A DNA stretch of 56,040 nucleotides from an uncultured Gemmatimonadota bacterium (GTDB lineage Bacteria > GCA-2686955), in NCBI GenBank assembly GCA_964490075.1, contig CAZBBK010000036.1, positions 1 to 56,040 on the forward strand, given 5' to 3'. Of this stretch, positions 511 through 10,546 are shown one piece after another. How positions within the stretch are numbered: the first letter of the stretch is position 1; the number at the start of each line of letters is the position of its first letter. The notes below the pieces were generated by a model, which did not search any database, was not told the DNA's origin, and was given only the letters and a program-made list of their open reading frames with translations. Position numbers and translations under genes: made by a program.

Positions 511-1275
511 ATGGCCCCCACATCCACCAGCTCGGGCGATCCCAACGCCGCCGTGCGGCGCATGTTCGACGCCATCTCAGGGCGCTACGACCTGCTGAAC
601 CGCGTGCTCTCCGCCACCTTCGATCGATCCTGGCGGCGCCGCGCGGCCGCTCTGCTGCCTCCCTGTGGAAAGGTGCTCGATCTGTGCGCCGGCACCGCCG
701 ATCTGGCGATCGCGATCGATCGCGCGCAAGGAGGTGAGGCGCGCATCGTGGCGGCCGATTTCTCGGGGCCGATGCTCGATCTGGCGGGCCCAAAGCTGCG
801 CCGCGCGGGGGTCCGCGCCGGGATCACACGGGCCGACGCCCGGATGCTGCCGCTGCGCGCGGAATCGTTCGATGGCGTGGCGGTCGCGTTCGGGATTCGC
901 AATATCACGCCGCCCGAGGCGGGACTGCGCGAGATGGCCCGGGTGCTGCGGCCTGGTGGTCATCTGCTGGTCCTGGAGTTCTTCGGTCCCGCGGGCGGGT
1001 CGTTGCGTACGATCTTCGCCTTCTATTTCCGACAGGTATTGCCGCGTCTGGGGGGGGCGATCTCGGGCGCCTCGGAGGCCTACCGCTACCTGCCGGATTC
1101 GGTGGCCCGCTTCGTGACCCGCGATTCCTTCGGCGAGCTGCTGCGCTCCTGCGGCCTGGACGAGCTGGCGCGTGAGGAGCTCTCGGGCGGCATCGCGACC
1201 GCGTGGCTGGCGCGGCGGCGCCCAGAGCCGCGCGCTGCGGAGGCGCGCTTGGGTGCCGAGGCCGGTTGCCGATGA
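511..1275 (+). CDS. ubiE: Demethylmenaquinone/ubiquinone methyltransferase (UbiE/MenG family)
   Basis: VRRMFDAISGRYDLLNRVLS, SAM motif VLDLCAGTAD, AFGIRN, EMARVLRPGG, AYRYLPDSV. Confidence 0.93.
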   Translation: MAPTSTSSGDPNAAVRRMFDAISGRYDLLNRVLSATFDRSWRRRAAALLPPCGKVLDLCAGTADLAIAIDRAQGGEARIVAADFSGPMLDLAGPKLRRAGVRAGITRADARMLPLRAESFDGVAVAFGIRNITPPEAGLREMARVLRPGGHLLVLEFFGPAGGSLRTIFAFYFRQVLPRLGGAISGASEAYRYLPDSVARFVTRDSFGELLRSCGLDELAREELSGGIATAWLARRRPEPRAAEARLGAEAGCR

Positions 1276-2144
1276 GCTCCGGATCGCTGCTGCGGCAGAC
1301 CCGCGTCACGCTCGAGATGATCAAGTTCTCGCACACCGTCTTCGCGCTGCCCTTCGCGCTGCTCTCCGCGGTGCTGGCCGCCGACGGGATGCCCGCCGCC
1401 GGCGTGCTGCTGGGGATTTTGGGAGCGATGGTCGGCGCGAGATCGGCGGCTCTGGCTTTCAATCGCCTGGTCGATGTCGGCTTCGACGCCCGCAACCCAC
1501 GCACCGCGGATCGGGCTCTGGCGGCCGGCCACGTCAGCCGGCGCTACGTCGTGGCCTTCACCCTGGCCTCGGTTGCGCTCTTCGTCGGCTCGGCGGCATG
1601 GTTGAACCCGATCTGCCTGGCGCTCTCACCCCTCGCACTGGCGGTGGTGCTCGGCTACTCCTTCACCAAGCGCTTCACCGCCGCCAGCCATTTCGTGCTC
1701 GGCCTGGCGCTCGGAATCGCACCGACCGGGGCCTGGCTGGCCGTGACCGGGTCTTTCGCCCTCACGCCGCTCTTGTTGAGCGCGATCGTGATCCTGTGGA
1801 CGGCCGGATTCGACCTGATCTACGCCTGCCAGGACATCGACTTCGACCGCTGCGCCGGTCTTCGCTCGCTGCCGGCATCGCTGGGCGCGGCGGCGGCGCT
1901 CGAGCTGGCGCGCTGGCTGCACCTCGGCATGCTCGCGGGCCTGGTCGGGCTCCCCTTGATGGTGGCGTCGCTGGGTTGGATTTACTGGGTCGGTGTCGCC
2001 GCGGTCGCCGGGATGTTGGCCTACGAGCACAGCATCGTCTCGGCCGAGGATCTGAGCCGTGTCGATCTGGCCTTCTTCAAGCTCAACGGTGCCCTCAGCG
2101 TGGCGCTGGCGTTGGCGATCATCGTGGACGTGGGGCTCCGATGA
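1272..2144 (+). CDS. mqnP: UbiA-family prenyltransferase, futalosine-pathway MqnP type
   Basis: MIKFSHTVFALPFA, GARSAALAFNRLVD..DARNPRT..R, YSFTKRFT, GFDLIYACQDIDFD; ATG 1272 overlaps the ubiE stop (ATGA). Confidence 0.88.
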   Translation: MSSGSLLRQTRVTLEMIKFSHTVFALPFALLSAVLAADGMPAAGVLLGILGAMVGARSAALAFNRLVDVGFDARNPRTADRALAAGHVSRRYVVAFTLASVALFVGSAAWLNPICLALSPLALAVVLGYSFTKRFTAASHFVLGLALGIAPTGAWLAVTGSFALTPLLLSAIVILWTAGFDLIYACQDIDFDRCAGLRSLPASLGAAAALELARWLHLGMLAGLVGLPLMVASLGWIYWVGVAAVAGMLAYEHSIVSAEDLSRVDLAFFKLNGALSVALALAIIVDVGLR

Positions 2145-3157
2145 ACGATCGATGGCCGCCGCCGCTGCCACCGGTCTCACTGGTCGCGGGCGCCGCACCG
2201 ATCCGTCTCGGCGTGGTCTCCTTCCTCAACGCCCGGCCCCTGGTCTGGGCGCTGGAAGAGCGCCCGACACCGCAGCTCGTGCTCTCCTACGACCACCCGG
2301 CGGCGCTGGCGCGCCAGCTGCGCGCGGGCGAGATCGATGTCGGCCTGGTGCCGGTGGCCGAGGCACTGCGCAATCCTTCCTGGTGCGCGATCGAGGGCCT
2401 CTCGATCTCTTCGGACGGGCCGGTCTGGTCGGTCAAGCTGCTCACCGAGACGCCCCCTCGCGACGGCGAGCACCGGCTGCGACGGATCGGAGTCGACTAC
2501 CGGAGCCGCTCCTCGGTGGCGCTGCTGCGCGCCCTCTTGGCCGACCTGGACGGACCGGTGCCGGAGCTGGTGGAGATCGATCCGTCCACCGATATCGCCG
2601 CCGACGGCCGCCCGGCCGATGCCCGACTCGACGGCGTGCTGGTGATCGGGGACCGGGCGTTGGATCTCCCCGAGGGCTGGGATCTCGGCGCGGCGTGGAG
2701 GCGCAAGACCGGTCTGCCCTTCATCTACGCGTTGTGGATGGCCCGAAACCGCCGGTGCGCGGCCGCGCTCGGGGATAGACTTCGGGCAGCCCGCGACCTC
2801 GGTCTGGAGCACCTGGATCGAATCCTGGCCCACGACTCCGCCTTTCGCGGCCGGGACGAGAAGCTGATGCGCCGCTACCTCAGGGAAGCAATCGACTACG
2901 GCTGGAGCGACCGGCACCGGCGGGCGATCGCCCGTTTCGCGCGCGCGATCGGCGTCGATCCCGGGTCGCGCTCGGTCCACGAGGGCGATCCACGCCCCGC
3001 TCCGAGCGCTGCTGAGCACGGCCAGTCGATCACCGAGTTCATCCTCGTCCTGGTGCTGGTGAGCATCCCGGTGTTTCTTTCGCTGCAGGCATTCAAGATG
3101 GCGCTGGGCGAGTACTTGCGGCGCCTGGCGATCGGGGTGTCGATTCCCTTTGTTTGA
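2141..3157 (+). CDS. mqnA: Chorismate dehydratase MqnA with a C-terminal Flp/Tad prepilin-like extension (338 aa)
   Basis: RLGVVSFLNARPL, ISSDGPVWSV, SRSSVALLR, VLVIGDRAL, WDLGAAW..KTGLPFIYALW are MqnA motifs. ATG 2141 overlaps the mqnP stop. The tail reads HG|QSITEFILVLVLVSIPV. Confidence 0.85.
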   Translation: MNDRWPPPLPPVSLVAGAAPIRLGVVSFLNARPLVWALEERPTPQLVLSYDHPAALARQLRAGEIDVGLVPVAEALRNPSWCAIEGLSISSDGPVWSVKLLTETPPRDGEHRLRRIGVDYRSRSSVALLRALLADLDGPVPELVEIDPSTDIAADGRPADARLDGVLVIGDRALDLPEGWDLGAAWRRKTGLPFIYALWMARNRRCAAALGDRLRAARDLGLEHLDRILAHDSAFRGRDEKLMRRYLREAIDYGWSDRHRRAIARFARAIGVDPGSRSVHEGDPRPAPSAAEHGQSITEFILVLVLVSIPVFLSLQAFKMALGEYLRRLAIGVSIPFV

Positions 3158-3353
3158 GTAGCTCACTGCCACCGGCGAGGGCAACGCCGTCCGCATCGAA
3201 TCGCCGCTGCCAGCGCTTTGCCTGCGGTTTTTCCCCCATGGGGGTGTTAGAATCGGCACCAAAGGACCATCGCCGGGTGGCGGAAGCGCCGGGCGATCGC
3301 CGAATTGCCGCGGAATTGTCCGAAAAGGGCGCGGAGCGGAGGTCGCCAGTGGT

Positions 3354-3369
3354 TGGCACGCCGCTTGCG
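3354..3369 (+). promoter_or_regulatory. Sigma-54 (-24/-12) promoter for the flp/tad operon
   Basis: TGGCACG-ccgc-TTGCG matches TGGCACG-N4-TTGC, ~105 bp upstream of the first pilin. Confidence 0.8.
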
Positions 3370-3473
3370 CAACAGTCGAGCGAGCGGTGGTGAGGCCGTC
3401 TCCGAGGCGTCCACCATCGAGCCAACGAGGATCCAGCTCGGACCGCGTCGACCCGAGTCCGAGGGAGACGAAG

Positions 3474-3656
3474 ATGATGAACCTGCTCCGTCGCATTCAC
3501 GACGATCAGCGGGGCCAGGGGCTCGCCGAGTACACGCTCCTGATCGCCCTCATCGCCATCGCGCTCATCACAATCGTTACCTCTTTCGGTGGCAAGCTGG
3601 GCGAGATCTTCACCTCCGCCACCACCGAGCTGAACGACAACGTGCTGCAGCCCTAG
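3474..3656 (+). CDS. flp: Flp family type IVb major pilin
   Basis: DDQRG|QGLAEYTLLIALIAIALI (G|xxxxEY Flp motif); 60 aa; RBS GAGGGAG at 3461-3467. Confidence 0.92.
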   Translation: MMNLLRRIHDDQRGQGLAEYTLLIALIAIALITIVTSFGGKLGEIFTSATTELNDNVLQP

Positions 3657-3677
3657 GTCGCCCCTCCAGCCATCATC

Positions 3678-3860
3678 ATGCGAGTCCCGAGCCGAGAGCG
3701 AACGCCGCGCGAGCAGGGCCAGAGCCTGATCGAGTACATCATGCTGGTCGCCCTGGTCGCGGTGGCGTTGATCTTCTCCACGCAAGAGCTCGGCATCGCA
3801 TTCTCGGATCTGTTCCGCAGCACCGCCGACTCGATGGCCTCCACCGACGTATTTCGCTAG
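3678..3860 (+). CDS. flp: Second Flp family pilin
   Basis: EQG|QSLIEYIMLVALVAVALI; 60 aa. Confidence 0.85.
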   Translation: MRVPSRERTPREQGQSLIEYIMLVALVAVALIFSTQELGIAFSDLFRSTADSMASTDVFR

Positions 3861-3868
3861 GTTCTGGC

Positions 3869-4399
3869 GTGCCGCCGGACGTTCTGCCGACGGTCGCGCT
3901 GGTCGCGTTCGTGCTGGCCGCCGCGTTCACCGATCTGAGATCGCGGCGCATCCCCAACGCTCTCACCTACCCCTGCATCGTCTTCGGCTGTGCCTTCCAT
4001 GCCCTGGGGGGAGCATGGTCCAGTGCTCTGCTGGGCCTGGCCTTCGGGTTCGGCCTGCTGCTGCTGCTGGCGCTCCTGGTCCCGGGAGCGCTGGGGATGG
4101 GGGATGTGAAGATGGCGGCGGCGATCGGGGCCCTGGGGGGCTTTCCCTTCGTGGTCGACGCGCTGCTCTGGGGCATGGCCTTCGGCGGAGTGGGCGCGCT
4201 CGTCACCATGGCCGCGCGACGCCGCCTGGGGCTGCTGCTGCGCCGGGTGAGGGCCCTGCTCGAGGCGGTGGCGGTCGCGGCGCGAGCCGGAGGACGGGTG
4301 CACCTGGCGCCCCGAGCCGACGCCGGGGCGGAGGTCCCCTTCGGCGTGGCGCTGGCCGCCGGCACCCTCTTCGTGCTGCTGCGCGGAGGGCTGGCATGA
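3869..4399 (+). CDS. cpaA: A24-family prepilin peptidase (TadV/CpaA)
   Basis: TDLRSRRIPNALT, GMGDVKMAAAIGA, VPFGVALAAG; GTG start inferred at 3869. Confidence 0.9.
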   Translation: MPPDVLPTVALVAFVLAAAFTDLRSRRIPNALTYPCIVFGCAFHALGGAWSSALLGLAFGFGLLLLLALLVPGALGMGDVKMAAAIGALGGFPFVVDALLWGMAFGGVGALVTMAARRRLGLLLRRVRALLEAVAVAARAGGRVHLAPRADAGAEVPFGVALAAGTLFVLLRGGLA

Positions 4400-4950
4400 G
4401 GCGGCGCGAGGGACAGACCGTCGTCGAGGTGCTGGTGGTGCTGCCTCTGCTCATTCTGCTGGTGCTGGGCCTGTTGCAGTACGCCCTGGTGCTGCAGGCC
4501 AAGCAGCTGGTGAACGCCGCGGCGTGGCGGGGGGCGAGGGCGGCCTCGGTGGCGGCCGACTATGAGGGCTGGCCCGGCTGGGATCTGCTGCCTCGAGTGC
4601 AGCTGGCGGCGATCTCGGCGCGCAGCCCGGCGCCGCCCCCGCCCAACGTCGAGAAGCGGATTCGCGCCGCCGCCGCCGACCTGGTGCCGGCGGAGGATGC
4701 ACGCCATCTCGACGACCTGCTGCAACGGGTCGCCTACACCATGGACCGGCGCAACCTGCGGGTCGACCACCAGGATCTGCTGCGGTCGGGAGAGGGGGGG
4801 GAGCCGGTCCCCTCGGTCACGGTGCTGGTTCGTTATCGATTTCTGCTGCAGTTCCCGCTGGTCGATCAGATCTTCGACCGCGTCGACGGTCGCGTCGATC
4901 AGCGCATGCTGATCAGTGCGCGCTGCACTCTGCCCGTGGAGCCGGCGTGA
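4396..4950 (+). CDS. tadE: TadE-like pseudopilin
   Basis: REG|QTVVEVLVVLPLLILLVLGLLQY...NAAAWRGARAA; ATGA overlap with cpaA. Confidence 0.85.
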   Translation: MRRREGQTVVEVLVVLPLLILLVLGLLQYALVLQAKQLVNAAAWRGARAASVAADYEGWPGWDLLPRVQLAAISARSPAPPPPNVEKRIRAAAADLVPAEDARHLDDLLQRVAYTMDRRNLRVDHQDLLRSGEGGEPVPSVTVLVRYRFLLQFPLVDQIFDRVDGRVDQRMLISARCTLPVEPA

Positions 4951-6200
4951 GGACTGTGCTCGGCGCGCGGCGGCAGGAGCGGGGGCAGGTGGTGCTGGTG
5001 CTGCTGGTCGGGGTGCTGATCGCCACCCTCTTCATGGTCGGCGGCTTCGAGGTCACGCGCCTGGTGCAGCGCGCCCTGGTCGGGCAGAACACCTGCGACG
5101 GCGCGGCGCGCGCGGCGGCGACCTGGCAGGCCCGAGGGCTCAACGTGATCGGCAGCGCCAACGTGGCCTCCAGCCTGCTGCTGCTGGAGTACGTGCTGCC
5201 CTTTCCGGAGATGGATGCCTTCGATCCGGCTCTGGAGGAGGCGGCGCGCGAGATCGCCGCGCTCCAGGACTCGGTGGCGCTGCTCTATCCGGCGATGGGC
5301 GTGGTGGCGGCCTCGGCGGTGGCCCGCCAGGCGGGGATGGACGCCCTCAGCGCGGAAGATCTGCGCGAGATGGGCTACGAGGAGGCGGCCGAATGGCTCG
5401 CCTCGATCGAGAGCTCCGGCGAGCTCGGCGCCGTGCTTTCGGGCGCCCTGCACGCGGTGCCGGTGGGGTCGGATCAGGCGCAGCCGATGCTCTCGTTGGG
5501 GGTGCATCGCGCCGAGCGAGAGGGGCTGGCGCACCTGGCCGCGGCCTTCCTGGCCAGCGACGGCACCGCTCTCGACATGATCTTCGGACAGTTCGACGCG
5601 CCGATCTACGCATCCGCCCAGGCGCCGGTGCTGCTTTTCGGGCACCACGGACCGGCCGACTACTCGCTGGTGGAGAGCCCGGGCGCGGCGGAAGACGTGA
5701 TGCAGCTGATCTACTTGGTGGCGCCGGGGGTCCATGGTACCGAAAACGTGCTCACCCATCGCGGGGTCGCCAAGCTGGAACGCTTCCTGGGCTATCCACC
5801 GCGGACCACGCCGATCGGTCTCGAAGATCTGCTGGTCGTGCGCGCCCTGGGCCCGGTCGATGCCGACGAGCTGGCGGCGCGTTTCGGCTGGACCAAGACC
5901 GCGCTGGTGGAGCGCAGCATCGAGCTGGCGATCGAGGCTTTGCAGTCGACTCCCGACTTCGCCTTTTCCTTCTACGTTTTCGACCGCGATCCCTGGACCC
6001 GATCGGGGGCTTCGACGACCATGTTGGCGCGCGAGCGCGGCTGGAGCTCGGCGCTGGTGCCGGGCGAGATGATCGATGCGGTGTTCCTGGCGGCGGCCGC
6101 ACCGGTGGCCCACGAGCCGACCGTGGGAGCGATGGTGCTGCCGATCTTCGACGACGTGGGTCTGCGCCAGGTGGCGGACGACGATGGGGACGGCCGGTGA
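4947..6200 (+). CDS. tadG: TadG-like (Tad N-terminal domain) minor pilin, possible tip protein
   Basis: ERG|QVVLVLLVGV, then QNTCDGAARAAATWQARGLN; C-terminal part not recognised. Confidence 0.7.
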   Translation: MRTVLGARRQERGQVVLVLLVGVLIATLFMVGGFEVTRLVQRALVGQNTCDGAARAAATWQARGLNVIGSANVASSLLLLEYVLPFPEMDAFDPALEEAAREIAALQDSVALLYPAMGVVAASAVARQAGMDALSAEDLREMGYEEAAEWLASIESSGELGAVLSGALHAVPVGSDQAQPMLSLGVHRAEREGLAHLAAAFLASDGTALDMIFGQFDAPIYASAQAPVLLFGHHGPADYSLVESPGAAEDVMQLIYLVAPGVHGTENVLTHRGVAKLERFLGYPPRTTPIGLEDLLVVRALGPVDADELAARFGWTKTALVERSIELAIEALQSTPDFAFSFYVFDRDPWTRSGASTTMLARERGWSSALVPGEMIDAVFLAAAAPVAHEPTVGAMVLPIFDDVGLRQVADDDGDGR

Positions 6201-6733
6201 AGGCACGGGCGACGGGCGGGCAGGCCGCGGTGGAGCTGGCGATCGGCCTGCCGATCCTCATTCTGCTGCTGATCACGATCCTGCAGGGAGCGATGCTCGG
6301 TGTGGCGCTCCACGAGGCACAGCTCGTGGCCAACCAGGTCGCCGCCGAGGCCGCGCGCTCGCCGGGCCTGCTCTATGTCGACCCGGCGCGCTTCATCGAC
6401 TTCGGCGTCTACCATGCGATCGGCGGGCGCGAGCTCATGACCGGAGAAGCGGCGTTCTCGGGGAATCGGAGCTTCCAGATGGGGGCCATGCGGGTGCGGG
6501 TGGAGTACGCCGATCTGCTGAAGGTCGACGAGCGCCGAACCATCGGCAGCAAGCTGACCGGCGGCAGCGACGAGGAGGGTGCCGCGCAGCTCATGGGCCG
6601 GCTCGACTTCGGACATGTGCGGGTGACGGCGGAGCGGGAGATCGAGGCCTTGCCGGGGATCCGCGCCTTTCACCCGCAGAGCTTCATCGTGCGCGCTTCC
6701 GCCGTGGGGGGGCTGGCCGAGGAGGCACGGTGA
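6197..6733 (+). CDS. TadE/TadF-like pseudopilin
   Basis: GG|QAAVELAIGLPILILLLITILQ...AAEAAR; GTGA overlap with the upstream stop. Confidence 0.8.
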   Translation: MKARATGGQAAVELAIGLPILILLLITILQGAMLGVALHEAQLVANQVAAEAARSPGLLYVDPARFIDFGVYHAIGGRELMTGEAAFSGNRSFQMGAMRVRVEYADLLKVDERRTIGSKLTGGSDEEGAAQLMGRLDFGHVRVTAEREIEALPGIRAFHPQSFIVRASAVGGLAEEAR

Positions 6734-6787
6734 GACGGTCGATTGCGGTAGAGTCCGACCCCAACCCAACGCCAGGAGGGGCGCATC

Positions 6788-7645
6788 TTGGAGACCAAGC
6801 CCGACGAAGGCGGCCCTGAGAAACGCTACGACCTGCTCACGATCGCGATCGCGCTGATCGCGGGGCTGCTCGCCATCTGGGCGGGCAATCGCTACTTCGG
6901 CGCCCAGATCAAGTCGGCCGAGGAGCCGGAGATCCAGATCCTGGCGGCGGCGCGGGATCTCGCCGCGGGGGAGCAGATCGCCGAAGACGCGGTGGTGGTG
7001 GTGCCCTATCCGGCGCGGGCGGTGACCGGCGACATGGCCCGGCCGCAGGATCGCGTGGTGCTGGTCGATCTGCCGCTGCGGGTGGCGGTCAGAAAAGGCA
7101 ATCCGATCCTGCGCAGCTATGTGAGCGGTGCGCCGATCGATGCACGGCTCTCGATGCTCCTCCAGGAAGGCGATCGCGCGATCACCATCGCGGTCGATCC
7201 AGTCTCTGGACTGGCGGGTCATCTGCGTCCGAACGATCGCGTCGACGTGCTCGGCACCTTTCAGGTTCCTTCCGCCGATCCGGCCCGCGCGCTGCGCACC
7301 CGTACGCTGTTGGTCAACGTGCCGGTGCTCGCGGTCGGCGAGCGCACCGGGACCAGCTTCGCGGACCAGCGCTTGCCCGGGCTGGCGCTGCTCTCTTCCC
7401 AGACCCGATCGCGCGCCCAGGCCACCACGGTGACCTTGCGGGTGACGCCCGAGCAAGGAGAGATACTGGCCTTCGCCAGCGAGAGCGCGCGCCTGAAGCT
7501 GCTCTTGCGGCATCCCGACGACGCTTCGCCACGATCCGAGCCGGTCGATCACACGCTCGGCGAGCTCTTCGATCTGCCCGAGCGAACCGCGAGCGATGCG
7601 CCACCGGCCCGTCCACCCCGATCCCCGGTGACCTATGAGCGATAG
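6788..7645 (+). CDS. cpaB: Flp pilus assembly protein CpaB/RcpC
   Basis: N-terminal TM, SAF domain (AARDLAAGEQI), RAITIAVD..SGLAGHLRPNDRVDVL, TVTLRVTP; TTG start with AGGAGG RBS. Confidence 0.9.
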   Translation: METKPDEGGPEKRYDLLTIAIALIAGLLAIWAGNRYFGAQIKSAEEPEIQILAAARDLAAGEQIAEDAVVVVPYPARAVTGDMARPQDRVVLVDLPLRVAVRKGNPILRSYVSGAPIDARLSMLLQEGDRAITIAVDPVSGLAGHLRPNDRVDVLGTFQVPSADPARALRTRTLLVNVPVLAVGERTGTSFADQRLPGLALLSSQTRSRAQATTVTLRVTPEQGEILAFASESARLKLLLRHPDDASPRSEPVDHTLGELFDLPERTASDAPPARPPRSPVTYER

Positions 7646-8963
7646 CGTCTTGCGCTGGCTGGCCGGCCTCCTTCTGGCCGTGGCGGCGAGCGCGCGGCCG
7701 GCGCCGGCCGCAGCTCTGATTCCCCCCTTGCGGCTCGATCTGAACGAGCAGCAGACCCTGGAGCTGGCGCGCTTCGAGAGCATCTATGCCGCCGACCGAT
7801 CGGTGGTGGCGGTGCGCCCGCTGGCGGGCAATCGCCAGGTCATCCTGACCGGCGTCGGCGAAGGCTCCACCAGCATCACCATCGTCTACCCGGGCGGCCG
7901 CACCGAGACCCGGAGCATCCGCGTGGTTTCGCAGCGGATCGCGGCCGATGATCTGCAGCTCCTGATCGGCGACATCTTCGGGATCCAGGTGCTCGAGGTC
8001 GGATCGAATATCGCGGTGCGGGGGGCGATCCGCACCCGCAGCGAGCTGAGCCGCTACCGAAAGGTCGTCGAGCGCTTCGACAACGTGATCGACCTGGTCG
8101 AGGACCTGAGCACCGGCAGCAATGTGCAGCTCGACGTGAAGGTCTTCGAGCTCACCCGCAGCGGGGTCGAGGAGCTCGGAGTCGAGTGGTTCGAGACCAT
8201 CCAGCAGTTCGACGTCGACTTCTCCGACCAGCCGCGCGGGCTCGAGTACCAGCTCACCCCGCCGCGCGGTGGCCTGCTCTACGGCGAGGAGACCCTGGCC
8301 GATCTGACGACACCGGTCACGGTCGGCAAGATGGCGCGGATCACGCCGCTCCTGGTCGAGCTGCGAGCCCTGGAGGAGCGCGGCGACGCCCGGCTCCTGG
8401 CCAAGCCCCAGCTGGTCGCGGAGAGCGGCAGCGAGGCCCGTTTCCAGGTCGGGGGGCGTCTGCCCTATCCCTTGGAGAGCAGCCAGGGGGCGGTCTCGGT
8501 GCAGTTCCAGGAGTACGGCACGATCCTGGAGATCCAGCCCAGCATCGTCTCCGCGGGGGCCATCGCCCTGGTGATTCGCGCTGAGGTTTCGGAGCCCGAC
8601 TACGTCAACTCGGTGCTCGGAACGCCGGGCATCCGGTCGCGCGAGGCGTCGACGACGGTGCAGCTGTTGGAAGGGGAGACCCTGGCGATCGCCGGGCTCC
8701 TGTCGACAGCCGAGTCCGAGTCGCGGCGCTCGCTTCCGATTCCGTTCCTCGCCGGGCTGCCGCTGATCGGGTCGCTGCTCGGATCGGAGCGCACCGAGGT
8801 CGATGAGATCGAGACCTTGATCCTGGTGACCCCGCACATCTTGACGGCCGGAACGTCGACCGTGGGCAGCGCCACGCTGGAACAGATCCGTGGCGAGCGG
8901 GAGAGCCGCGCGCGGGGGGAGTCGGCGGCGGCGGCGCCGGAGAACGAGCCGGAAGGGTGGTAG
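7635..8963 (+). CDS. cpaC: Tad secretin RcpA/CpaC
   Basis: Signal peptide; ARLLAKPQLVAESGSEARFQVGGRLPY, EYGTILEIQP, GETLAIAGLL, IPFLAGLPLIGSL, ETLILVTPHI. Confidence 0.9.
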   Translation: MSDSVLRWLAGLLLAVAASARPAPAAALIPPLRLDLNEQQTLELARFESIYAADRSVVAVRPLAGNRQVILTGVGEGSTSITIVYPGGRTETRSIRVVSQRIAADDLQLLIGDIFGIQVLEVGSNIAVRGAIRTRSELSRYRKVVERFDNVIDLVEDLSTGSNVQLDVKVFELTRSGVEELGVEWFETIQQFDVDFSDQPRGLEYQLTPPRGGLLYGEETLADLTTPVTVGKMARITPLLVELRALEERGDARLLAKPQLVAESGSEARFQVGGRLPYPLESSQGAVSVQFQEYGTILEIQPSIVSAGAIALVIRAEVSEPDYVNSVLGTPGIRSREASTTVQLLEGETLAIAGLLSTAESESRRSLPIPFLAGLPLIGSLLGSERTEVDEIETLILVTPHILTAGTSTVGSATLEQIRGERESRARGESAAAAPENEPEGW

Positions 8964-10546
8964 ACGCGGTGTCGCTGGTGCTCCTCGTGCACACTCCCGA
9001 CGGCCGCGTGGAGCCCCATCGCGTTGCCTCCGAGCACTGCGTGATCGGTTCCGCCGCCCAATGCGAGATCTTCCTGCCGCACACCGGCATCGAGGCTCGG
9101 CACGCGGCCATTCGCGTGCGCCCCGACCGCTCCTGGGAGGTGGTCCACAGCGCCGCCGAGGGGGTCACCTACGTCAACGATCGACGCGTTTCCGAGCGCG
9201 TCATCGAGGCCGGCGATATCGTGCGGGTGGGCAAATGCGAGCTGCTGGTCCAAGCCGAGCCCGGACGCAGGGTCGGATCGGCCCTGACGGCGGCGGAGGA
9301 GGAGCTCTTCTTCGACACCAAGGTGAGCCTGCACCGGCGGCTGATCCAGCGGATCGACCTGCGCCGTCTCGACGAGGCGGCGCTGCGGACCGAGGCCGAG
9401 CGCGTCATTCGCACGCTGATTCGAGAGCTCGACAGCGAGATCCCCGAGTTCGTCGAGCGCGATCGCCTGGCCAAGGAGCTGGTGGAGGATTCGCTGGGAC
9501 TGGGGCCGATCGAGGATCTGCTAAACGATCCCGAGGTCAGCGAGGTGATGGTCAACCGGCGCGACCAGGTCTTCGTCGAACGCGACGGCCGGCTGCTGCC
9601 GACCGACAAGAAGTTCCTCGCCGACGAGCAGATCGTCAACGTGATCCAGCGCATCGTGGCGCCGCTCGGCCGCTCGATCAACGAGGCCCGGCCGATGGTC
9701 GATGCCCGCCTGCCCGACGGCAGCCGGGTCAACGCGATCATTCCGCCGCTGGCGATCAATGGACCGACCCTGACGATTCGCAAGTTCTCGCGGGTGATCT
9801 TCGAGGTGGCCGACCTGATCGATCGCGGCAGCCTGTCGTGGGAGATGGCGCGCTTTCTGCGCCTCTGCGTGGAGTACAAGCGCAATCTGATCATCAGCGG
9901 CGGCGCCGGGTCGGGCAAGACCACGCTGCTCAATATCCTGGCCAGCTTCATCCCCCCGGCCGAGCGGATCATCACCGTGGAGGACGCGGCCGAGCTGAGT
10001 CTGCCGCAGGAGCACGTGGTGTCGCTCGAAGCCCGTCCCTCCAACCTGGAGGGGAAAGGGGAGGTGACCTTTCGCGACCTGGTCATCAACTCGCTGCGCA
10101 TGCGCCCTGATCGCATCATTGTCGGCGAATGCCGCGGCGGCGAGGCGCTCGACATGCTCCAGGCGATGAACACCGGACACGAGGGCTCGCTCACTACCAT
10201 CCACGCCAACACTCCGCTCGACTCCCTGACCCGTCTCGAGACGATGGTGCTGATGAGCGGGCTCGAGCTGCCCTCGCGGGCGATTCGCGACCAGATCATG
10301 TCGGCGATCGAGATTGTCGCGCAGACCCAGCGCTTCTCCGACGGCAGCCGCAAGATCACCCAGATCTCGCAGGTCTCCAACCAGACGCCCGGCCGCTTCG
10401 AGCTGGTCGATCTGTTCCGCTTTCGGCAGACCGGGATCGACGGCGACCAACGGATCTCCGGCGAATTCGTCGCCACCGGCGTGCGCCCCCGCCTCATCGA
10501 CCAGCTCCAGGAGCAGGGCCTGGAGATCCCCTGGGATCCTCGATGA
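8957..10546 (+). CDS. cpaF: TadA/CpaF pilus ATPase with an N-terminal FHA-like domain
   Basis: Walker A GGAGSGKTT, LRMRPDRIIVGECRGGE, AMNTGHEGSLTTIHAN; residues ~5-98 FHA-like (VIGS..CEIFL....IEARHA). Confidence 0.93.
   Translation: MVDAVSLVLLVHTPDGRVEPHRVASEHCVIGSAAQCEIFLPHTGIEARHAAIRVRPDRSWEVVHSAAEGVTYVNDRRVSERVIEAGDIVRVGKCELLVQAEPGRRVGSALTAAEEELFFDTKVSLHRRLIQRIDLRRLDEAALRTEAERVIRTLIRELDSEIPEFVERDRLAKELVEDSLGLGPIEDLLNDPEVSEVMVNRRDQVFVERDGRLLPTDKKFLADEQIVNVIQRIVAPLGRSINEARPMVDARLPDGSRVNAIIPPLAINGPTLTIRKFSRVIFEVADLIDRGSLSWEMARFLRLCVEYKRNLIISGGAGSGKTTLLNILASFIPPAERIITVEDAAELSLPQEHVVSLEARPSNLEGKGEVTFRDLVINSLRMRPDRIIVGECRGGEALDMLQAMNTGHEGSLTTIHANTPLDSLTRLETMVLMSGLELPSRAIRDQIMSAIEIVAQTQRFSDGSRKITQISQVSNQTPGRFELVDLFRFRQTGIDGDQRISGEFVATGVRPRLIDQLQEQGLEIPWDPR

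Follow-up and report, generated by a model that had tools for sequence, protein, structure and literature searches.

Why would an enzyme of menaquinone biosynthesis carry, in its own reading frame, the processing site and membrane helix of a pilin? The question is raised by one gene in a 56,040-nucleotide stretch of DNA from an uncultured Gemmatimonadota bacterium (GTDB lineage GCA-2686955; GenBank assembly GCA_964490075.1, contig CAZBBK010000036.1, positions 1 to 56,040 of the forward strand). We refer to this whole stretch as the window and to the genome it comes from as G000. A single open reading frame (ORF) at 2141-3157 (+) encodes a 338-residue protein (P0001) and ends in TGA, and it is confirmed that this one frame holds a complete MqnA, or chorismate dehydratase, followed by a prepilin module of the Flp type. 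The fusion is real, conserved, and unusual.

The mqnA ATG (2141-2143) overlaps the stop codon of the upstream UbiA-family gene (2142-2144) in an ATGA at 2141-2144. From there the MqnA domain runs over residues 1 to about 283 (2141-2989 (+)), as delimited by PF02621, by alignment to the Streptomyces coelicolor enzyme, and by an AlphaFold2 model. Comparison of the C-termini of MqnA homologues suggests that the natural end lies near residue 283, which leaves about 10 residues before Gly294, approximately the proximal part of a Flp leader. Beyond residue 272 the chain turns into a stretch rich in Pro, Ser, Ala, and Gly (linker or leader-like stretch, residues 273-293; 2957-3019 (+)), passes through a prepilin-peptidase-type site, A-E-H-G294|Q-S-I-T-E-F (3011-3040 (+); the bar marks the predicted cut), and continues as a hydrophobic run that ends at V338. 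The site is recognized by its motif and by its register with the neighboring pilins Flp1 and Flp2. Gly294 is encoded by 3020-3022, with Gln295 at +1, Glu299 at +5, and Phe300 at +6, and the mature-like part, Q295-V338, has 44 residues (3023-3157 (+), stop codon included); it is delimited by a modeled helix, by substitution rates, and by stand-alone homologues. The initial annotation, made from the letters alone, had already described a complete MqnA, a linker without in-frame stop or ATG, GTG, or TTG, Gly294 at 3020-3022, and Glu at +5, and all of this stands. It was also right to place the last in-frame ATG inside MqnA, but the position it gave, 2866, has to be moved to 2867-2869. That codon, M243, is the last canonical in-frame start before the site: a scripted scan of G000 and of G003, a genome from the same family, found no in-frame ATG, GTG, or TTG from residue 244 to the G294 site, and the near-cognate codons in this stretch of the window are just ATC at residues 251, 263, and 270. 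Because there is no internal start, the sequence implies that the MqnA and pilin-like parts must be made as one polypeptide chain.

MqnA catalyzes the first step of the futalosine pathway, in which chorismate is dehydrated to 3-enolpyruvyl-benzoate, and the enzyme part of the fusion retains the features expected of it. Pfam VitK2_biosynth (PF02621) matches residues 21-268 with 153 bits (E 1.3e-44; cut-off 26) over profile positions 1-248 of 252, a full-length match above the gathering score. S. coelicolor MqnA (ScMqnA; PDB 2nxo, 7ahr) aligns through its chain positions 10-271 of 291 to residues 22-275 (E 2e-26). All nine PDB matches to the window's protein are MqnA entries; seven are named chorismate dehydratase, and the other two are 2nxo (SCO4506, the same S. 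coelicolor protein) and 2i6e ("hypothetical protein"). In PMC9672406, Asn17 and Ser86 of ScMqnA are reported as absolutely conserved and needed for activity, and Tyr242 and the Ser109-Arg110 loop are also placed in the active site. The residues of the window's protein that align to Asn17, Ser86, Tyr242, and Ser109-Arg110 are N30, S97, Y246, and S122-R123, and N30, S122, and Y246 are invariant among the 60 MqnA homologues aligned. The two proteins thus share fold, domain extent, and key residues. They differ in that ScMqnA is a soluble homodimer of 291 residues with no membrane segment (PMC9672406 does not contain the word "membrane"), whereas the window's protein adds a linker and a predicted transmembrane, pilin-like helix. 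By these measures the MqnA part looks like a functional chorismate dehydratase. With P0001 as the query, no second MqnA was found in G000. Another PF02621 gene of the genome, on contig C31 (56961-57740 (-), 223 bits), lies within a 563-aa open frame; it appears more MqnD-like and is presumably MqnD, and either the gene is possibly fused as well or the long frame was possibly miscalled.

What kind of module, then, follows the enzyme? The tail carries the G|xxxxE[YF] processing motif and a hydrophobic helix (G294|QSITEF, helix 297-332), and the G, Q, S, E, and F of the site are invariant in the three tails for which DNA is at hand. When these tails were compared by hhalign with the six Flp1 and Flp2 proteins of G000, G001 (a second family-mate genome), and G003, the match had a probability of 94.8% (E 5.5e-8), rising to 96.8% (E 3.2e-10) with ten tail-family sequences; these E-values are pairwise, and a hydrophobic helix inflates both hhalign and profile similarity, which counts against taking the tail for a prepilin on such scores. 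Both alignments fall in register, with G-Q on G-Q and E-F on E-Y. The pattern goes beyond chance. A HMMER profile of the three tails, run against 1.84 billion (1.84e9) representative proteins, returned eight matches. One is the window's protein (97 bits, E 3.7e-23), which is itself one of the three inputs of the profile. The other seven are all small, stand-alone proteins of 42-112 aa: P0114 (47 aa), P0115 (112 aa), and P0116-P0120 (42-59 aa). Four of them (P0116 and P0118-P0120) have ordinary short leaders with the site [E/G]-x-G|Q-[SAG]-x-x-E-Y and a common C-terminal motif, Y-x-x-R-[ILV]-A...P, which in the tail subfamily reads Y-x-x-R-[ILV]-A...P-[FLI]-x. When an eight-sequence profile of the tail family was run against a 5.8-billion collection, 58 matches of 47-173 aa were found at E<=1e-3, all but two of them no longer than 89 aa. 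PF04964 (Flp_Fap) is carried by 47 of these 58, several bear the name Flp pilin in JGI or NCBI records, and one member of the profile input, P0119, is a "Flp family type IVb pilin" in NCBI naming. The initial annotation had proposed a search for stand-alone homologues of the 44-residue pilin, and these proteins, together with a gene in G001 discussed below, supply them. Within G000 the sole other match of the tail profile is Flp2, and it is weak (E 0.005). Nearest to the tail in the ESM Atlas are clusters of small unnamed proteins (0.89-0.90), with Class_IIIsignal and Flp_Fap clusters at 0.83-0.84; both serve as leads only.

The AlphaFold2 model, built with 60 aligned sequences, agrees with this division of the chain. 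The MqnA fold is confident, with ten-residue blocks at a predicted local distance difference test score (pLDDT) of 93-98 over residues 11-270; residues 283-294 are disordered (pLDDT <50); and residues 297-332 form a single helix, with block pLDDT of 87-92 for residues 301-330. A disordered linker followed by one helix matches what a Tad pilin without a head should look like (PMC11067988). Flp/Tad (type IVc) prepilins resemble the window's tail in having a G|xxxxE[FY] site and a hydrophobic helix of about 20 residues (PMC10191384 and PMC11067988). Further shared features are the mature part, about 45 aa long and lacking a globular head, and the position of the gene, which opens a tad locus whose A24 peptidase has no methylase domain. 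The difference lies at the other end of the protein. In the window the class III signal occupies residues 291-317 of a 338-aa protein instead of the N-terminus, its motif begins only at residue 294, and what precedes it as a "leader" is the MqnA domain, a folded and apparently active enzyme of 293 aa in place of the 10-30 hydrophilic residues of Flp/Tad prepilins. Flp1 of Aggregatibacter and PilA of Caulobacter are familiar examples of type IVc prepilins. The tail is a Flp-type prepilin module, homologous at the profile level. We file it as Flp-like and not as a canonical Flp because it fails both the Pfam score and the criterion of N-terminal placement in a small protein.

A fusion seen once in a metagenome may reflect a lost stop or start codon in one assembly. 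The stretch is present in four sequencing runs from a single marine-metagenome study, which were compared as Logan contigs and not as raw reads. Run X1, possibly the source of this DNA, is identical over 2600-3700, and one contig each of runs X2 (2888-3038), X4 (2800-2991), and X3 (3037-3423) matches with 0 differences and 0 gaps. Of greater weight, the fusion recurs in other lineages. In G003 an ORF cut by the contig reads on from MqnA without a change of frame, passes ...E-K-G|Q-S-L-A-E-F..., and closes with P-F-V as in the window; P0002 is the full-length form of this fusion (338 aa, 66% identity to the window's protein), and P0003 is a third fused form (338 aa, 65% identity). The three fused lineages are 64-66% identical and keep the same frame and length. 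The other lineages and the further-sample contigs agree that the junction is not an accident of one assembly, and P0002 and P0003 are the other MqnA proteins with a C-terminal pilin-like tail that the initial annotation had thought worth seeking. They were found with the full-length query; a homologue search restricted to residues 265-338 and to proteins of similar length found the query alone, within the limits of its word index. The protein search gave 113 matches at E<=1e-20, of which three are the 338-aa fusions and 109 are proteins of 225-298 aa that cover at most 81% of the query and have no tail. One further match, P0113 (451 aa, JGI/ENA, E 6.6e-21), is a distant MqnA homologue with a C-terminal extension of about 180 aa that is unrelated to the pilin tail, and so represents an MqnA fusion of a different kind.

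Substitution patterns separate the three parts of the protein. Between G000 and G003, the MqnA domain (residues 128-272) has a nonsynonymous rate (dN) of 0.22 and a synonymous rate (dS) of 1.04, a ratio of about 0.21, and the tail (residues 294-338) has dN 0.29 and dS 1.78, a ratio of about 0.16; with dS near saturation these ratios are rough. The linker is saturated, with a nonsynonymous proportion (pN) of 0.76. Identities between the proteins follow the same division: 68.8% in MqnA, 2/18 in the linker, and 62.2% in the tail for P0001 and P0002; 83.5%, 7/18, and 45/45 for P0002 and P0003; and 1/18 in the linker for P0001 and P0003. The MqnA domain and the tail are both under purifying selection in the fused lineages, and the linker, whose sequence is unconstrained, keeps only its length and frame.

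Relatives that lack the fusion indicate how it may have arisen. The next-closest MqnAs, P0004 (282 aa), P0005 (295 aa), and P0006 (285 aa), are 57-60% identical to the window's protein and stop soon after the domain. In G001 (locus L002), which supplies the DNA for one of these three, a TGA follows MqnA, unlike in the window, and the tail is an 89-aa ORF in another frame with a start of its own, either an ATG that overlaps the mqnA stop or an in-frame GTG with GAGGGGG upstream, which would give a leader of 6-7 residues. This ORF carries ...S-G-G|Q-S-L-A-E-F... and a P-F-W end. The sister pair of G001 (P0005/P0121) has the gene order of the window and a tail that is 42% identical with the same motif. 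Two stand-alone tail genes have been called with long leaders, 45 aa in G001 (L002 1178-1447 (-)) and 66 aa in P0115, and their annotated starts are probably too far upstream. Gene order is alike in G000, G001, and G003: ubiE-ubiA-mqnA-tail, a spacer of about 300 bp, then flp1-flp2-peptidase. A relative in which MqnA ends at its own stop and the pilin is encoded separately had been named at the outset as something that would speak against the fusion. G001 is such a relative. Since the fusion has been retained by a sister clade, we infer that the unfused pair of G001 represents either the ancestral arrangement or an alternative one.

That clade emerges from a maximum-likelihood tree of the MqnA domain, made from the first 25 of 60 alignment rows, the 60 having been chosen from the 113 matches. 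P0001-P0006 form one clade with support 100/100, which divides into two sister clades, one of the three fused proteins (90/81) and one of the three unfused proteins (96/87). On this tree a single fusion event would suffice. Because the outgroup MqnAs are tail-less and the distant relatives of the tail are free-standing, parsimony favors the joining of two neighboring genes over the reverse, with the caveat that the rooting among the six proteins is not proven. In a DNA alignment of the junction from three genomes, the linker is too diverged to reconstruct the fusing event. Sampling is thin, with just five species genomes in the phylum of this genome in GTDB. G004, which is 95% complete and the sole member outside the family, has no match to MqnA or to the tail, and a tail scan of the genome contigs found only G003. 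The metagenome-contig scan brought up one candidate, L019, which was rejected as a 279-aa TadE-like protein of another Tad locus and not a relative of the tail.

The machinery that could process the tail is encoded alongside it. Flp1, Flp2, an A24 peptidase, two TadE-like proteins, CpaB, a secretin, and CpaF all lie within 7.4 kb downstream of the fusion. Flp1 (3471-3656 (+)) matches Pfam Flp_Fap at E 7.6e-8, and Flp2 (3678-3860 (+)) does so at E 2.3e-6, below the gathering score. The prepilin peptidase gene, placed by the initial annotation some 700 bp downstream, occupies 3869-4399 (+) and starts 712 bp after the fusion ORF; it encodes a TadV/CpaA-type A24 enzyme of 176 aa without a methylase domain (Pfam Peptidase_A24, E 2.8e-16). 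Its D22 and D79 (the latter in G-M-G-D-V-K) are conserved with G003, and we take these motifs to be the catalytic Asp motifs. The role of two conserved Asp residues in prepilin peptidases is treated in PMC10191384. Predicted cleavage sites of the neighboring proteins read G|QGLAEY in Flp1, G|QSLIEY in Flp2, G|QTVVEV and G|QAAVEL in the TadE-like proteins, as the initial annotation had listed them, and G|QVVLVL in a TadG-like protein, so that G|Q is common to all five other predicted substrates of the peptidase in the locus. That the tail is a Flp-type prepilin module heading a Tad locus with an intact A24 peptidase is borne out by hhalign, profiles, and motifs together. A complex prediction of the peptidase with a 59-aa tail segment scored 0.00 and is used neither for nor against cleavage.

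How might such a chain have arisen, and what would become of it? At the head of the Tad locus, the mqnA stop codon and the spacer and start of an adjacent downstream flp-like gene were probably lost. Once the fusion is translated, its C-terminal helix would enter the inner membrane and take up the topology of a prepilin, with MqnA remaining cytoplasmic. This topology, with the N-terminal side cytoplasmic and the peptidase active site on the cytoplasmic face, is that given for prepilins and their peptidases in PMC10191384, and a cytoplasmic N-terminal side means that MqnA would sit where its substrate chorismate is. The TadV/CpaA-type peptidase encoded 712 bp downstream would then cut after G294 and yield soluble MqnA and a 44-aa Flp-like pilin in 1:1 amounts; given low, enzyme-like amounts, the latter would, speculatively, probably be a minor pilin. 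We consider cleavage after G294 by the adjacent A24 peptidase the most likely outcome, with chances that we put at about even, because G-1 and E+5 are kept, because the tail is conserved like its free-standing and presumably processed relatives, and because a pilin with its leader attached cannot assemble. A further step, that an active housekeeping enzyme serves as the cytoplasmic "leader" and that cleavage couples the release of chorismate dehydratase to the supply of a minor pilin, stoichiometrically and spatially, is an idea that we rate as less likely than not.

The sequences establish the fusion, its conservation, its kinship to Flp, the selection on both parts, and an intact peptidase and Tad locus; insertion into the membrane, the cut, and what becomes of the pilin are inferred. 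A number of points weigh against cleavage of the fusion as a prepilin. To our knowledge no prepilin has a leader that is folded and about 290 aa long, and hindrance of cleavage by such a leader, steric or kinetic, is possible. Curated models do not recognize the tail: no Pfam model, Flp_Fap included, matches the three 48-aa tails or seven stand-alone tail relatives at E<=10, the window's 71-aa tail stretch gives 0 Pfam matches at E<=1, and NCBIfam gives only chance-level matches to the tails and their stand-alone relatives. At 62% identity between G000 and G003, the five motif residues are conserved only slightly more than expected (about 0.09, a rough estimate). Only three fused lineages are known, all from metagenome-assembled genomes or metagenome sequences. 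Finally, the tail gene is part of the quinone operon, with 313 bp between it and flp1, and its G001 counterpart overlaps the stop codon of mqnA; such a position would suit a function linked to MqnA no less than one in the pilus.

This last group of facts leads to the strongest competitor, in which the chain is never cut. The helix, of Flp origin, would have taken on a new role as a lasting C-terminal anchor and would keep MqnA at the inner membrane, close to those later reactions of menaquinone synthesis that are themselves membrane-bound; the UbiA-type prenyltransferase, whose gene lies just upstream, is an example. Retention of the pilin-like motif would then reflect helix packing or insertion and not processing. 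The tail ends the ubiE-ubiA-mqnA operon, 313 bp from flp1, the ATG of the separate ORF in G001 that overlaps the mqnA stop suggests a tie to MqnA even in the unfused state, the tail fails the Pfam Flp_Fap model, and the modeled topology would place an anchored MqnA in the cytoplasm, where chorismate is. An anchor, however, needs only hydrophobicity, and yet G-1, Q+1, S+2, E+5, F+6, and the C-terminal Y-x-x-R...P-F are kept, just as in the small free-standing prepilins whose leaders are short. Identity of P0002 and P0003 reaches 100% in the tail as against 83.5% in the enzyme domain, a peptidase that is intact and predicted to recognize G|Q sites is encoded alongside, and the absence of a tail from 109 of the 113 MqnA matches argues that MqnA has no general need for anchoring. 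On balance we rate permanent anchoring as the main alternative, though less likely than cleavage.

In a second alternative the pilin is made separately, by initiation at M243 (ATG 2867) or at a near-cognate codon. Its leader would then measure about 50 aa, and the full-length fusion would be a by-product of overlapping in-frame genes. M243 is indeed conserved in the three fused proteins, and long leaders have been called in G001 and P0115 (45 and 66 aa). Against this, no good Shine-Dalgarno sequence was found before ATG 2867, G000 and G003 have no near-cognate start near the site in common, and the GTG and GAGGGGG of G001 give a normal leader of 6-7 aa, so that the long leaders are probably calling artefacts. 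Without a stop codon, moreover, full-length translation yields the fusion protein anyway, and we consider a separate internal start improbable. It is less probable still that the frame is an assembly or sequencing frameshift, or a decaying flp remnant that is read through without function. All the data come from metagenome assemblies, and in this G+C-rich DNA, where long open frames are found, the same frame is open back to position 1172. The recurrence of one frame and length in three lineages at 64-66% identity, the agreement at the junction of further-sample contigs from the same study, and a tail with a dN/dS of about 0.16 beside a saturated linker nonetheless leave this explanation effectively refuted already.

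The surrounding genes place the fusion between two systems. Upstream, the first gene of the quinone operon with mqnA encodes a UbiE/MenG-type methyltransferase (511-1275 (+); Pfam Ubie_methyltran, E 2e-47), followed by the UbiA-family prenyltransferase (1203-2144 (+); Pfam UbiA, E 1.2e-52). Downstream of the peptidase, TadE-like, TadG-like, and TadE-like proteins, CpaB/RcpC, a secretin, and an FHA-CpaF/TadA ATPase are encoded in succession (4396-10546 (+); Pfam TadE, Tad (weak), TadE, RcpC, Secretin, and T2SSE with FHA). The 417-aa product of 4947-6200 (+) has an N-terminal hydrophobic segment with E-R-G|Q-V-V-L and a Pfam "Tad" match below the cut-off (E 0.0088); it appears to be a divergent TadG-like component without Glu at +5. 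The Tad ATPase (8957-10546 (+); T2SSE, E 3.7e-61) bears N-terminal FHA (E 2.4e-9) and Yop-YscD_cpl (E 2.4e-10) matches, and the FHA domain suggests phospho-threonine-dependent control of pilus assembly. A non-coding spacer of 313 bp (3158-3470) separates the tail from flp1, its counterparts measuring about 320 bp in G001 and about 280 bp in G003, and it may hold a flp promoter or a regulator site. A promoter scan of 2700-3900 found no promoter-like (sigma-70-like) site, and both terminator-like sites in that range lie inside coding sequence. Rfam gave only a sub-threshold asX3 match (E 0.067), which is taken as chance.

The initial annotation knew of no described MqnA-pilin fusion, and none appears in the literature listings and passages that we searched on MqnA, futalosine, Flp/Tad, and prepilin leaders, where a domain-sized prepilin leader was likewise not found. 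A partial parallel exists in the nitrile-hydratase-like leaders of the precursors of ribosomally synthesized and post-translationally modified peptides, where a sizeable N-terminal part homologous to an enzyme is followed by a cleavage site of the Gly type and a small, functional C-terminal product. Those enzyme-derived leaders are inactive relics, are cut by a different class of protease, and do not belong to pilins, whereas the enzyme part in the window looks functional. The scope of the finding is narrow, being three lineages of a sparsely sampled, uncultured marine phylum. Within it, the meaning depends on the fate of the chain. Prepilin peptidases are thought to remove short hydrophilic leaders. 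If the fusion is cleaved, a folded enzyme of 293 residues would be the leader, which would test what the A24 active site tolerates, and two unrelated functions would be made from one precursor, a rare case in bacteria. The leader, if it is one, would be by far the longest known for a prepilin and would link quinone synthesis to pilus biogenesis. If the fusion stays uncleaved, a pilin helix would have been recruited as the tail anchor of a normally soluble enzyme, the one that takes the first step of menaquinone synthesis by this route, and the finding would bear on the membrane organization of the futalosine pathway.

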